A stretch of DNA of 64,000 nt, taken from the NCBI GenBank assembly GCA_963745025.1, contig CAVUWD010000012.1, positions 52,961 to 116,960 on the forward strand. Direction: 5' to 3'. This DNA is from an uncultured delta proteobacterium (GTDB lineage Bacteria > Desulfobacterota > Binatia > JACPRU01). This document shows positions 18,565 through 64,000 of the stretch, piece by piece (the first letter of the stretch is position 1; every line of letters starts with the position of its first letter). The translations under genes and the position numbers were made by a program. Below the pieces are notes generated by a model. It saw nothing but the letters and a program-made list of their open reading frames with translations. It had not been told where the DNA came from and searched no databases.

Positions 18565-18657
18565 AATTAACCAACGGTTGGAGCAGACCGGCGCACAACC
18601 GGCTCGTCACGACCGGGCGGTTATGGGCGCCGGCCGCTCAACCGCCGGTCGTTAGAC
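18565..18657 (+). repeat. Integron attC site (93 bp)
   Basis: R'' AATTAAC, L'' CGGTTGGAGC pairing with L' GCTCAACCG (one extrahelical base), R' GTTAGAC; imperfect palindrome, similar to the site at 20911. Confidence 0.85.
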
Positions 18658-18691: not shown

Positions 18692-18983
18692 GTGGCTGGG
18701 CTCATCTTCGAGTGGGATACTGCGAAGGCGGAGAGCAACTTTCGAAGGCATGGCGTCTCGTTCGTGGAGGCGGTGACCACCTTCGCCGACCCCTTGGCGG
18801 CGATCCACGACGATCCCGATCACTCAGAGCAGGAACCCCGAGAACTCATCATCGGGGCACTCAAGCGCCGACCGGCTGTTGATCGTGAGCTTTACGGAGC
18901 TACCGAACTCGGTCAGAATCATCAGCGCCCGCAAAGCGACACGGCGGGAACGTCGCGACTATGAAGCCAGCCGAAAAGCATAA
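18692..18983 (+). pseudogene. brnT: BrnT family ribonuclease toxin (frameshift in the G run near 18855)
   Basis: FEWDTAKAESNFRRHGVSFVEAVTTFADP; removing one G gives LLIVSFTE..VRIISARKATRRER ending at TAA 18983. Confidence 0.85.
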
Positions 18984-19209
18984 GGCAACCGACGGTCTTC
19001 GTAGGGAATACGTGTTCGACTACGCCCGGGCACGCCCCAACCGCTTCGCCCCGCGCATGAAGGGCAGGAGCGTTGCCATCGTTTTGGACCCCGACGTCGC
19101 TTCTGTTTTTCAGAGCGCAGAGGCCGTCAACGCCCTCCTACGTTCCGTGATCTCGGCCATGCCAAGGGGCGCTAAAGCCACCAGGCTGCCGAGGCGCAGA
19201 GCGGTCTAA
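18961..19209 (+). CDS. BrnA-like antitoxin
   Basis: LRREYVFDYARARPNRFA..VLDPDVASVFQSAEAVNALLR; overlaps brnT; stop lies inside GTCTAAC, an R''-type box. Confidence 0.8.
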   Translation: MKPAEKHKATDGLRREYVFDYARARPNRFAPRMKGRSVAIVLDPDVASVFQSAEAVNALLRSVISAMPRGAKATRLPRRRAV

Positions 19210-19219
19210 CCCCAACCTC

Positions 19220-20632
19220 CTAAGAAACAACGACAGTAGGGGTTTGTAATTGCACGAGTTGGAAGCCGAGAGAGGCGGCGCGCTTGGAGAGAGAGCGGAC
19301 GGTGCGCTCGCGGAATTTGAGTTCGTAGTAATCGATGCCGAGATCTTTGTAGGGTTGGCGGTGCTTCCACATTCGGTAGAAGATGCGCGAGAGCTTGTGG
19401 GCGGTGGCGGTGATGGCCTTGGGGGGCCCGAGTCGGGCGCGCATGCGGCGATGAAAGGCACCCAGAGCGGTGTGGCTGTTGCCGGCAGACTGAGCGGCTC
19501 GGCGTAAGGCAGTGGCCACACGGTTGGAGGCTTTTCGGGTCTTGGAGCTTTTCACTTCTCCTCCGGTGACACGGTTGTCGGGGCACAGCGCAAGCCAGGA
19601 GGCGAAGTGCTTCTCGGAGGGAAACTTCGAGGGATCGAGGCCGACCTCGGAAAGGATGGTCTGCACGGTGAGGGCATCGAACCCCGTGATGGCGGTGAAG
19701 TCGACGCCTGAGATTCGATAGAGGTGGGTGCGCAGGTCGAAGCCAGCCTCGTTGCGCTGGGGCTTGCGGTGGGTGGCCTTGGGTTGTCCCAGGGGCGTGA
19801 GAGCAGGGTCGACTTGGGTGTCGAAGCCGCCCAGGCATTGCTCGATCCGCAGGTCGCAGTCGGCAATCATGCTGCGGTAGGTGTCATAGAGCGAGAGGCA
19901 TTGCTCAAGTGCGAAGAGGTGCTCGGGTCGGTAGTCGCCCTGGAGGGATTGGGCGATGCGCTCGGAGGTGCTCTTGATGCGATGATCGCGCATCGCGGCC
20001 AGAAGCTGTGGATCTCGCTCACCGGCGAGGATGGAGCGAATGATTCTCATGCCGCTGACGCCGGTGATGTCACTGATGACCTTGTGAAGCTGGATGTTCA
20101 TCTGGGTCAGGGCCTTCTGCATGCGCTGCACGTGAGCGGCCGCGTCGCGGATGAGAGTATCGCGCTGGCGGATGTAGCTGCGCAGCACGCAGGTCTGATC
20201 GTCGGGACGAAACGATCCCGAGAGTAGACCAAAGGTGTGCAGCTGCTGGAGCCACTGGCAGTCCTGGATGTCGCTCTTTCTGCCGGGCAGGTTTTTGACG
20301 TGGCGGGCGTTGACGAGCTTGACCTCGAAGCCGCGCGTCTCGAGGATCTGAAAGAGCGGGATCCAGTAGACTCCGGTGGATTCCATGACCACGGTGTCGA
20401 CTCCGCACTGCTCGAGCCAGTCAGCCAGACGGTGCAAATCGGCGGTGAAGCACTCGAAGCGGCGCACGGGCTGCGGATCGCGGTCCTCGGGAACCGCCAC
20501 GTAGTGCTCGGCGGATCCGACATCGATGCCGGCGGCGTTGAGGTGCACAGCCTTGAGGCTCGCGGGCAACCCCGTTCCTCGCGCGACGCTCTTTCTCTTT
20601 CGGCCTGCGCCGGGTTTGATAGACTCCTTCAT
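19220..20632 (-). CDS. IS110 family DEDD transposase/recombinase (470 aa)
   Basis: AAGGAGG RBS 8 nt before ATG 20632; GIDVG, VMESTGVYW, KSDIQD; C-terminal FASWLALCP and AITATAHKL. Confidence 0.95.
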   Translation of the reverse strand: MKESIKPGAGRKRKSVARGTGLPASLKAVHLNAAGIDVGSAEHYVAVPEDRDPQPVRRFECFTADLHRLADWLEQCGVDTVVMESTGVYWIPLFQILETRGFEVKLVNARHVKNLPGRKSDIQDCQWLQQLHTFGLLSGSFRPDDQTCVLRSYIRQRDTLIRDAAAHVQRMQKALTQMNIQLHKVISDITGVSGMRIIRSILAGERDPQLLAAMRDHRIKSTSERIAQSLQGDYRPEHLFALEQCLSLYDTYRSMIADCDLRIEQCLGGFDTQVDPALTPLGQPKATHRKPQRNEAGFDLRTHLYRISGVDFTAITGFDALTVQTILSEVGLDPSKFPSEKHFASWLALCPDNRVTGGEVKSSKTRKASNRVATALRRAAQSAGNSHTALGAFHRRMRARLGPPKAITATAHKLSRIFYRMWKHRQPYKDLGIDYYELKFRERTVRSLSKRAASLGFQLVQLQTPTVVVS

Positions 20633-20653
20633 CGAGTACACCTCCTTGGAGTT

Positions 20654-20846
20654 GGGATGTGCTCGGGCCGGGTGGGTCGAAGGTGAGAAATCTCCTAAAC
20701 GGGATAACCCTCCGTGCGAGGGAGGGCTTCACCAATGAAACAACCGCAAGCCCCCCGGAACCATGCTAACCCACGGGCGCGAAGGCACCATTGGCGCTAC
20801 GGTCTTAGCTACCCGAGCACATCCCGGTGTACTCGACGCACACCGG
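20654..20846 (-). ncRNA. Putative IS110 bridge/seek RNA
   Basis: Perfect 14-bp stem 20654-20667/20812-20825 encloses two repeated CT-N5-ACGGG-hairpin-CACCA units in the non-coding end upstream of the transposase. Strand is inferred. Confidence 0.7.
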
Positions 20847-20910
20847 CGCAGCAAAGACACTCAGGTTTCTTCCATCAACAACACCGCGCCTCGCGCGGGG
20901 TCAAATGCTA

Positions 20911-21001
20911 ACCTAACAAGCGGTTGGAGCGGCCCGGCGCGCAACCAGCTCGTCACGGCCGGACCTCGGTGGGCGCCGGCCGCTCAACCGCGGGGCGTTA
21001 G
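20911..21001 (+). repeat. Integron attC site, interrupted at R'' by IS110 and at R' by IS1634
   Basis: ACCTAAC..CGGTTGGAGC..GCTCAACCG..GTTAG; removing IS1634 restores GTTAGAC and a 93-bp site. Confidence 0.85.
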
Positions 21002-21126
21002 CCGGAAGTTCCCGCGCTCTGCCAGTGTGAAGGTGGTCTGAAAGTCGCGGTGGTTATTGGTGTTTGTGCCTGTGGGAGTGAGATATTTGGGTCCTTGCTG
21101 TAGTCACTAAATCATGCTGGGCTGGC

Positions 21127-21161: not shown

Positions 21162-22899
21162 GTGGCTCGGCGAAGCGGCGCAGTTCATGTAGTAACCACA
21201 AGGCGGACCTACAAAGACAAGGTCTACGAGACCCACCTGCTGCGCCGCAGCTACCGCCAGGGCGACACGGTCAAGAACGAGACGCTCGGCAACCTCTCTC
21301 ACCTCCCGGGCCATCTCATCGACCTGATTCGTCGCGCACTTCAGGGAGAGGCCGTTGCGCCGGTGACGCAGCTCTTCGAGATCACCTCTTCGGCGGCTCA
21401 CGGGCATGTGGAGGCGGTTCGGGCCGCGATGGCACGACTGGAGTTCGAGCCGCTGCTCGCCTCACGTGGGTGTCGGGAGCGCGATCTGGTGTGCGCGATG
21501 GTGGCCGCTCGCATCATCGCCCCGCACACCAAGCTCGCCACCACCCGCTGGTGGCACACCACCACCTTGGCCGAGGACCTCGCGTGTGGCCGATGCCGAC
21601 GAGGACGATCTCTACGCGGCGATGGACTGGCTGCTCGAGCGTCAGGGGACGATCGAGAAGAAGCTCGCCACGCGCCATCTCGGCGAGGGGAGCCTGGTGC
21701 TGTACGACTTGAGCTCGAGCTACTTCGAGGGGACGACCTGTCCGCTGGCCAAGCTCGGGCACGATCGCGACGGCAAGAAGGGCAAGCTGCAGGTGAACTA
21801 TGGGCTGCTCACCGATCGGCGCGGTTGCCCGGTGGCGGTGTCGGTCTACGACGGCAATACCAGCGACCCCAAGACCCTCATGCCGCAAGTCCACAAGCTC
21901 AAGAAGGACTTCGGCATCCAGACCCTGGTCCTGGTCGGCGACCGAGGGATGATTTCACAGAAGGCCATCGACGAGCTCAAGGAGCAGGACCAAGTCGCCT
22001 GGATCACGGCGCTCAAGACCCGTCAGATTCGAGCGCTGGTGGAAGGCGGGCAGCTTCAGCTCGGGCTCTTCGACGAGAAGAATCTCTTCGAGCTCTCGCA
22101 CCCGGACTTTCCCGCCGAGCGCCTGATCGCATGCCGCAACCCGCAGCTAGCGAAGCTGCGCAATCACAAGCGGCAGTCTCTGCTCGATGCCACCGAGAAG
22201 GAGCTCGAGAAGGTCAGGGGCATGGTCGAGCGGGGGCGCCTTTCGGGCCGCGACGCTATCGGCGTGCGCGTGGGCAAGGTCGTCAACAAGTACAAGGTCG
22301 CCAAGCACTTCGCGCTCGACATCGAGGAGCACCGCTTCGGCTTCCATCGGCTCGAGGACGACATCGCTTCGGAAGCGGCCCTCGACGGCATCTACATCAT
22401 CCGCACGAGCCTCGGGAAAAAGCAGATGACGGCCGCCGACTGCGTGCGTAACTACAAGTCCCTGGCTCAGGTCGAGCGGGCGTTTCGATCGCTGAAGACC
22501 ATCGATCTGAAGATCCGCCCCATCCACCATCACCTCGCCGACCGCGTCAGAAGCCACATCTTCCTCTGCATGCTCGCCTACTATGTCGAGTGGCACATGC
22601 GAGAGGCCTGGCGCCCCTTGCTCTTCGCCGACGAGGATCCACTCGCCAAGACTACCCGCGATCCGGTGGCCCCCGCCAAGCGCTCCGCGGCCGCCGAGGC
22701 CAAGGCCGCCTCTCATCTCCTCGACGACGGCACCCCCGCCCACAGCTTCTCCACCCTTCAACAGGAGCTCGCTACCATCGTCCGCAACACCTGCCGCGCC
22801 CCCCACGCCGGCGACGATGCCCCAACCTTCAAGATCACCACCACTCCCAACCCGAAGCAGCGTCGCGCCCTCGAACTGCTCAACGCCATCCACTTGTAG
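21162..22899 (+). CDS. IS1634 family DDE transposase (frameshift near 21583)
   Basis: LLRRSYRQGDTVKNETLGNLSHLP in ORF1; LYDLSSSYFEG, VGDRGMI, YKSLAQVERAFRSLK in ORF2; one extra C separates the two frames. Confidence 0.9.
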
Positions 22900-27624: not shown

Positions 27625-27672
27625 GCTGGAGATTCCGATCGGGACGTACTCGGCCCGATCGGAATCTCCAGC
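27625..27672. repeat. Perfect 19-bp inverted repeat (terminator-like or REP-like hairpin)
   Basis: gctggagattccgatcggg-10 nt-cccgatcggaatctccagc, about 50 bp downstream of the ltaE stop. Confidence 0.7.
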
Positions 27673-63736: not shown

Positions 63737-63929
63737 GGGATGTGCTCGGGCCGGGTGGGTCGAAGGTGAGAAATCTCCTAAACGGGATAACCCTCCGTGC
63801 GAGGGAGGGCTTCACCAATGAAACAACCGCAAGCCCCCCGGAACCATGCTAACCCACGGGCGCGAAGGCACCATTGGCGCTACGGTCTTAGCTACCCGAG
63901 CACATCCCGGTGTACTCGACGCACACCGG
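63737..63929 (-). ncRNA. Putative bridge/seek RNA, copy 2
   Basis: Appears identical to 20654..20846. Confidence 0.68.
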
Positions 63930-64000
63930 CGCAGCAAAGACACTCAGGTTTCTTCCATCAACAACACCGCGCCTCGCGCGGGGTCAAATGCTAACCTGTG

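Follow-up and report, generated by a model that had tools for sequence, protein, structure and literature searches.

The structure at positions 20654–20825 of the stretch of DNA analysed here (64,000 nt, hereafter the window) is very probably a bridge RNA gene on the minus strand of an IS110-family insertion sequence, with a target loop followed by a donor loop and with recombination at a CT/AG core. The known two-loop logic is mostly followed, with some departures on the donor side. The assignment to an IS110-family bridge RNA, which the initial annotation had proposed, draws on the Pfam and NCBIfam domains of the adjacent protein, a conserved fold and compensatory base pairs. Programmable recombinases are built on bridge and seek RNAs, and variation in the guide layout of these RNAs shows which designs are possible. 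Taken as a single finding, the result is mainly a well-supported annotation and adds no new principle.

The element is 1.69 kb long, has CT at both junctions and carries its transposase gene on the minus strand:
19217–20909, minus strand: IS110-family insertion sequence, both CT core copies included; delimited by the stretch common to five genome copies, the family rule and an empty-site comparison
19217–19218 and 20908–20909: CT core copies, enclosing an element body of 19219–20907
19220–20641, minus strand: transposase/recombinase open reading frame (ORF), 473 aa from GTG, with the stop codon TAG at 19220–19222

Five copies and one fragment at a contig end are present in the genome. Copies A (window 19217–20909), B (contig C16) and C (contig C8) are identical. 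Copy D, which runs from 62296 to the end of the window (64000), is 98% identical and has frameshifting indels in the recombinase ORF, with the bridge RNA gene intact:
63739–63907, minus strand: bridge RNA gene of copy D, identical to that of copy A; match to covariance model R1 (see below), 133.9 bits

Copy E (C8:103159–104488) has an internal deletion of ~364 bp, and its gene start and the 3′ end of its RNA gene are gone. The first 15 nt common to the IS copies are CTCCTAAGAAACAAC (19217–19231), and in both window copies the far junction carries CTAACCT (20908–20914 and 63991–63997). For this far end, 20909 and 20914 had been proposed as candidates. A comparison of an uninterrupted paralogous attC on contig C6 with the occupied site C revealed a single CTAAC in the empty site, which places the end at 20909, not 20914. 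With this end, the core dinucleotide CT lies on both sides of the element in all five copies. An end at 20914 was dropped on the basis of the empty-site comparison and the boundaries of relatives, as was one at 20912, which raw copy identity suggests. A sixth junction, from the X1 contig, reads ..GCTAAC followed by AACGAG. The empty site around copy A (19203–19216 + 20908–20917) would read GGT-CTAAC-CCCAAC-CTAAC-CTAAC-AAGCGG; it would contain the CTAAC box three times within 30 nt, which may reflect natural variation or scars left by past insertion and excision.

The recombinase matches the Pfam domains DEDD_Tnp_IS110 (PF01548, 5.9e-22) and Transposase_20 (PF02371, 5.6e-11) and scores 276 bits against the NCBIfam model NF033542, 'IS110 family RNA-guided transposase' (cut-off 140). 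Its likely start is an ATG 9 nt downstream of the GTG, behind AAGGAGG. The sole solved relative is IS621 (structure 8wt6), a weak match (E 2e-4). The predicted nucleophile motif is TG (Thr) and not the SG (Ser) of IS621; it was assigned to the region of window positions 20279–20281 (residues ~346–360, FASWLALCPDNRVTG). Among 165 relative loci scanned, 77 had SG and 60 had TG, and no motif was found in 28. Only 2 nt lie between the stop codon and the core, and a long non-coding region stands upstream of the ORF.

This non-coding region contains the bridge RNA gene, which ends ~15 nt before the recombinase ORF and has the same direction:
20654–20825, minus strand: bridge RNA gene; 14-bp closing stem (20654–20667 / 20812–20825) round two stem-loops, each with an internal loop; defined by covariance model and covariation
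20773–20790, minus strand: distal hairpin of the target loop, UGGUG..CCCGU, its stem closed by U.G, G-C, G-C, G-C
20699–20734, minus strand: distal hairpin of the donor loop; helix 5 has changes on both sides in 8/10 pairs
20884–20898, minus strand: terminator-like left-end hairpin CCGCGCGAGGCGCGG, then a U-rich run; in the same place in relatives, with other sequences

The closing stem pairs GGGATGTGCTCGGG (20654–20667) perfectly with CCCGAGCACATCCC (20812–20825) and encloses 172 nt. On the plus strand, unit 1 consists of CTCCTAA (20692–20698), ACGGG..hairpin..CACCA, AT and GAAACAAC (20737–20744), and unit 2 of CTAACCC (20766–20772), ACGGG..hairpin..CACCA, TT and GGCGCT (20793–20798). The initial annotation had described the structure on this strand, and all of its strings and coordinates (stem, both units, IS end and junction) proved exact; the functional strand, however, is the minus strand, on which unit 2 is the first (5′) loop and unit 1 the second. 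Within the 64 kb, only three perfect 14-nt inverted repeats with a loop of at most 220 nt occur, the two IS copies accounting for two of them, and twenty first-order Markov resamples of the window contained 0–3 each. The remaining perfect inverted repeat of at least 14 nt with a short loop lies at 27625–27672 (arms of ~19 nt, ~10 nt apart).

Folding of the non-coding region gave z = -2.8 on the minus strand (0/200 shuffles as stable) and z = -2.1 on the plus strand (1/200). The scaffold was searched for in relatives by a regular-expression parse and then with a covariance model (R1) built from 23 diverse relatives. In the window, R1 matched 20656–20824 on the minus strand with 133.9 bits, and elsewhere in the 64 kb only the second IS copy, also on the minus strand. 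R1 matched 61 of 80 homologous loci of species genomes, and all 63 locus matches lay immediately 5′ of the transposase gene and on its strand; with metagenome loci added, there were 96 matches in 97 sources. Over 85 distinct sequences, 95.7% of the cells were paired, as against 79.3% in shuffles and 32–42% in slid controls. Double-sided (compensatory) changes occurred in 23 of the 28 pairs, and 0/500 shuffles reached any of these measures. Each internal loop is closed distally by a conserved UGGUG/CCCG helix, and the pairs of the target-loop hairpin (columns 47–52 / 72–76) were 100% paired in the 85 sequences. Three pairs are nearly always G.U (81/83, 83/84 and 84/85 sequences). As these near-invariant G.U pairs would be A.C on the plus strand, and as the model matches lie on the transposase strand, the RNA corresponds to the minus strand, and a plus-strand RNA was rejected. 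Rfam gave three chance-level matches only (E 0.79–5.8), none inside 20654–20825, and a scan of 20560–21000 for sigma-70-like promoters found none.

The 3′ side of each loop has the form 5 nt + AG + 2 nt in about 30 relatives:
20763–20772, minus strand: 3′ side of the target loop (T3), GGGUU-AG-CAU; right-target guide (5 nt), core complement and handshake to the first IS bases
20690–20698, minus strand: 3′ side of the donor loop (D3), UUAGG-AG-AU; right-donor guide, core complement and conserved AU

Across 23 aligned sequences these sides read N5-AG-C and N5-AG-A, with AGC and AGA invariant. The terminal 7 nt of the element (19217–19223 on the plus strand) are those of D3. The D3 heptamer of relatives is always the end of their element (TTAGGAG, TTGAAAG, TCGATAG, TCGGGAG, AGAGAAG), and their elements always begin, past a variable flank, at AG-CA; the boundaries are independent for multi-copy relatives alone, whose ends were obtained by copy-to-copy comparison with no reference to the loops, and circular for single-copy relatives, whose ends were placed by matching the loop 3′ sides. 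The five copies in this genome are flanked by GGGTT, GTGTT, AGGTT, AGGTT and TTGTT, each followed by AG and CATTTG, and T3 matches 3–5 of the five bases at all five sites. At eight sites of a Wolbachia element, the five bases before AG are C7A1, G6A2, T8, T5A3 and T8, with variation at positions 1, 2 and 4. Because these five bases match T3 yet differ between copies of one element, they are derived from the target. The variation of the flank and the invariance of the AG identify AG (CT on the other strand) as the core and T3 as a guide of five bases, the core and CA, which matches the first bases of the element.

In the donor loop, the 3′ side thus covaries with the right IS end, and in the target loop with the flank and the left IS end, in agreement with the earlier proposal of unit 1 as donor loop, unit 2 as target loop and a core of 2 nt; the core is CT on the plus strand and AG on the RNA strand. 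Covariation of loop segments with ends and targets across homologues, put forward as a check of that proposal, was found for D3 and T3 and for the 5′ side of the target loop (T5, z 7.1; see below). In the published text on IS621 (PMC11208160, PMC11208158), the target loop reads both strands, the guides include a CT core, and the 3′ side of a loop consists of guide, core and two handshake bases. By sequence, the 3′ guide halves, core and handshake described here are canonical and, taken along the CT strand of the DNA, have the layout of IS621.

A cis-acting leader or regulator of the transposase mRNA only, or a set of protein-binding DNA repeats, would offer another account of the structure, one in which the choice of DNA is not guided. 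The structure does stand directly upstream of the ribosome-binding site and is preceded by the terminator-like hairpin, and the subterminal inverted repeat of the element (see below) is a feature at the DNA level. However, a leader has no reason to covary with flanks outside the element and with both of its ends, the compensatory changes and strand-specific G.U pairs point to a folded single strand, and the protein family is curated as RNA-guided. We consider this account highly improbable.

The 5′ side of the donor loop has a partner within the element:
20735–20744, minus strand: 5′ side of the donor loop (D5), GUUGUUUCAU; 8/8 match to the right end (19224–19231) in this element alone
20874–20883, minus strand: subterminal left-end site (D5*), UGUUGUUGAU, in the same sense as D5
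20865–20871, no strand assigned: left arm of the subterminal inverted repeat, GTTTCTT on the plus strand
19222–19228, no strand assigned: right arm of the subterminal inverted repeat, AAGAAAC on the plus strand, overlapping the transposase stop codon

Family-wide, D5 covaries with D5*, ~30 nt inside the left end (3.93/7 vs 2.30, z 7.4, 0/1000), and paired changes in D5 and D5* occur between close relatives. D5* is placed between the terminator-like hairpin and one arm of the subterminal inverted repeat. The arms of this repeat, 7–9 bp long in relatives, also covary (7.72/9 vs 6.56 permuted in 32 variants, 0/500). Judging from these comparisons, D5 may help to hold the donor via D5*, and a four-way junction in which D5/D5* joins the repeat stem would be geometrically possible. 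D5 does not match the core-adjacent bases of the left end, the position of a left-donor guide of the IS621 type, and as no signal was obtained there, such a role for D5 was dropped. That D5 generally extends the right-donor guide was likewise rejected, the match being confined to this element.

According to the initial annotation, the two donor segments match a single strand, to one side of the core, over 15 nt, which was taken there as a possible sign of a different guide architecture. The match decomposes into D3 (7 nt, the family rule) and D5 (8 nt). Its CTCCTAA part is an ordinary right-donor guide plus core, and its 8-nt part, GAAACAAC, does not carry over to the family: the other 31 variants of D5 and right end match at 1–5/8. 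There is a considerable chance, though somewhat below even, that the match is partly a coincidence, the family rule accounting for 7 nt and chance or drift for the other 8. The right end GTTTC-TTAGGAG would then be conserved because the C-terminus and stop codon are encoded there; GTTTCTTAGGAG is common to elements from many phyla, D5 starts with GUUGU in several relatives with other right ends, and close relatives match at 4–6/8 (L094 5/8; by eye, L093 6/8 and L091 4/8). Against coincidence stands the genome frequency of the 8-mer GTTGTTTC, 5.5e-6 per position, which is about the rate of an 8/8 match at a fixed register; moreover, the parallel pattern in the target loop, 5/6 at three sites, would have to be a second coincidence of this kind.

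That pattern concerns the remaining loop side:
20791–20799, minus strand: 5′ side of the target loop (T5), UAGCGCCAA; family pattern N + 5 variable + C-A-N

In 29 types with 80 sites, T5 matched the reverse complement of the opposite (right) flank at 2.88/6 for cognate pairs and 1.56 for permuted ones (z 7.1, 0/2000), and at the 44 non-palindromic sites of 19 types the values were 2.32 and 1.53 (0/2000); here, as in the other tests that permute across types, shared ancestry is not removed. The clearest case is the Wolbachia element, in which T5 reads AUCUU-C and the flanks are ATCTT, ATCTT, ATCTG and TTCTT. This covariation with the opposite flank indicates that the IS621 mode, in which the target loop reads both strands, holds across the family. 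The T5 of the window element itself (AGCGC) matches the opposite flank in the family register poorly, at 1/5 for sites A and B, 2/5 for C and, by eye, poorly for D and E. It matches the distal left flank on the same strand, adjoining the T3 site, at 5/6 for B, C and E. Matches to the flank in other registers (6/7 at site E, 5/6 at site C) were taken as GC-rich coincidence, as the registers are inconsistent.

We therefore weighed an architecture in which both halves of a loop read one DNA strand on one side of the core and are split by the distal hairpin, forming a three-way junction. It would hold for this element and perhaps part of the clade, with CT-AACCC-GGCGCT as target and CT-CCTAA-GAAACAAC as donor. 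D5 and D3 together do match 15 contiguous nt, and the 5/6 match of T5 at B, C and E falls in one register (random probability of at least 5/6, p = 0.0126; P(≥3/4) ~8e-6 if the sites are independent), but B, C and E may share attC-like ancestry and so may not be independent, and the register was picked after looking. Site A matches at 1/6, three Binatia sites with the same T5 match at 0–2/6, and the donor match of 8/8 is unique among 32 variants. At 43 non-palindromic sites of 19 types, same-strand matches of at least 4/5 made up a fraction of 0.10 as against 0.02 (31/2000 permutations as high), and either mode of matching 0.20 as against 0.04 (2/2000); the mean same-strand match at non-palindromic sites, however, is not above the permuted one (1.92 vs 1.74, 339/2000; 1.87 vs 1.60, 183/2000). 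Most targets of the family are palindromic, such as AACC-CTGAAAG-GGTT, and there the two strand readings coincide. The architecture would suit hairpin-forming or single-stranded targets (attC, REP), and predominantly top-strand insertion is reported for another IS110 element in the available text of 10.1101/2025.10.25.684509. On balance we regard it as unlikely; the features that suggest it are those of this element, and the family argues for it only weakly.

A wider version, that a clade of left-end-encoded bridge RNAs recognises donor and target DNA largely via one strand in branched junctions, is likewise doubtful. The donor loop would clamp a strand whose subterminal repeat forms a stem, with its 5′ side on the subterminal left-end site and its 3′ side on the core and right end, giving a four-way RNA/DNA junction. 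At the target of this element, as at its donor, the 5′ sides would extend the right guides over the distal hairpin, in three-way junctions, to 11–15 contiguous nt. If this were true, branched junctions would suit targets that extrude hairpins (attC, REP), in a programmable system with IS110 gene order and IS1111 guide order.

For the preferred reading, a bridge RNA with a target loop that reads both strands across the family, the following course can be proposed. The RNA would be transcribed from the minus strand in the direction of the recombinase gene ~15 nt downstream; we infer that it is made and bound by the recombinase, and the strand-exchange chemistry is inferred likewise. The 3′ side of the first loop, GGGUU-AG-CA, would pair with the DNA strand CT-AACCC, that is, the core and the flank on the left-end side, and CA would next serve as the handshake with the donor end as it comes in. 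The 5′ side of this loop, (U)AGCGC-C, would in relatives pair with the other DNA strand beyond the core. The 3′ side of the second loop, UUAGG-AG, would pair with CT-CCTAA at the circle junction, predicted to read ..GGGGTCAAATG-CT-CCTAAGAAAC.. (..CAAATG-CT-CCTAAG..) on the plus strand. Its 5′ side, GUUGUU.., would match the subterminal left-end site beside one arm of the 7-bp inverted repeat and, in this element, also the 8 nt next to the right-donor site. With recombination at the CT/AG core, the element would come to lie between the target halves, with CT left on both sides.

In its general plan the system resembles IS621 as described in the texts of PMC11208160 and PMC11208158: the RNA is encoded in a long left end, upstream of a DEDD/Tnp recombinase, and has two internal loops, the first binding the target and the second the donor, with a 2-nt CT core included. 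The real departures are a polarity reversed with respect to the gene, the subterminal repeat and the subterminal partner of D5. The core on the RNA/transposase strand is AG here and CT in IS621. As a result, the 5′ side here finds its partner in the DNA downstream of the element, on the strand of transposase sense, and the 3′ side in the DNA upstream, on the opposite strand, unlike the arrangement given for IS621. The subterminal inverted repeat is 7–9 bp here and 2–3 bp there, and D5 has its match ~30 nt inward from the left end instead of in core-adjacent bases. The recombinases also differ, with 473 aa here and 328 aa in IS621, weak similarity (E 2e-4) and TG in place of SG.

Other traits are shared with the IS1111-type seekRNA elements, including the attC-targeting ISKpn4 and ISPst6, as presented in the text of PMC11187229: a top-strand match 5′ of a bottom-strand match, subterminal inverted repeats of at least 7 bp (7–17 bp in that group), an S/T-G motif, and insertion in one end of attC sites or REP-like palindromes. 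The non-coding region, however, lies upstream of the transposase gene here and downstream there, with 'a few' exceptions with an upstream region mentioned in that text, and the recombinase has 473 aa as against 330–350 aa. ISPpu10 is described in the available text of 10.64898/2026.03.19.712850 as targeting hairpins (REP), with a sequence complementary to one target half that potentiates insertion. Compared by description only, the clade studied here resembles it in the dominance of palindromic targets and differs in having the terminator-like left-end hairpin, ISPpu10 being described without a 5′ stem-loop. As far as these texts go, the clade joins traits that the literature assigns to separate groups: an upstream RNA gene, an IS1111-type guide order, repeats of 7–9 bp and an S or T nucleophile.

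We found no description of the covarying subterminal donor site in the main texts, so that it appears to be new here; Durrant Extended Data Fig. 10/supplement or Siddiquee Supplementary Fig. 2 may show the clade or how its guides are laid out. A literature search for 'bridge RNA', attC and IS110 returned PMC11208160 alone, with attC just in reference titles, and 10.64898/2026.08.14.744561 contained none of the terms attC, integron, subterminal, STIR and polarity.

Copy A is inserted at the R″ end of an attC-like site:
20913–21003, plus strand: attC-like site with R″ CTAAC (20913–20917) and R′ GTTAGCC (20997–21003)

As DNA, this site folds with -32.1 kcal/mol (z -3.1). It belongs to a family of attC-like sites that are 84–91% alike over ~80 nt, located at window 18575–18655, 18692–19209 and 20913–21003 (the cassette region), C6:422446–422524, C4:8075–8165 and C7:106257–106359. 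A BrnT toxin cassette lies upstream of the attC of copy A, with a further attC ~640 bp upstream. The sites form at least one cassette, in the order attC, brnT/antitoxin-like ORFs, attC. Just past the attC, a DDE_Tnp_1 transposase ORF (497 aa) at 21406–22899 makes the stretch a mobile-element cluster. Copy C occupies the homologous position of another attC. A link of the element with attC, as suggested at the outset, is supported by sites A and C, two of the five insertions, which are in R″ boxes, and by an unoccupied attC R″ end (C4:8075–8086), where ACCGC-CT-AACCC agrees with 11/12 of the sequence predicted from the guides; it did not extend to copies B, D and E, which are not evidently in attC sites. 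In the genome, which is 92.65% complete, no integron integrase reaches the TIGR02249 cut-off (265), the best score being 73.9 bits. The element adds to the RNA-guided elements that land in attC R″ ends and can therefore interrupt cassette arrays.

Relatives were found in 133 of 179 candidate stretches from species genomes, in 459 of 532 from metagenomes and in 431 plasmid records. Among order-level relatives, two of eight genomes gave a match, one of the two being a fragment. On a Wolbachia contig (L021:1097–1456), one element of the clade interrupts the bridge RNA gene of a related element, within the 3′ side of its donor loop. The target guide of the inserted element is nearly complementary to that conserved loop, and elements can thus target each other.
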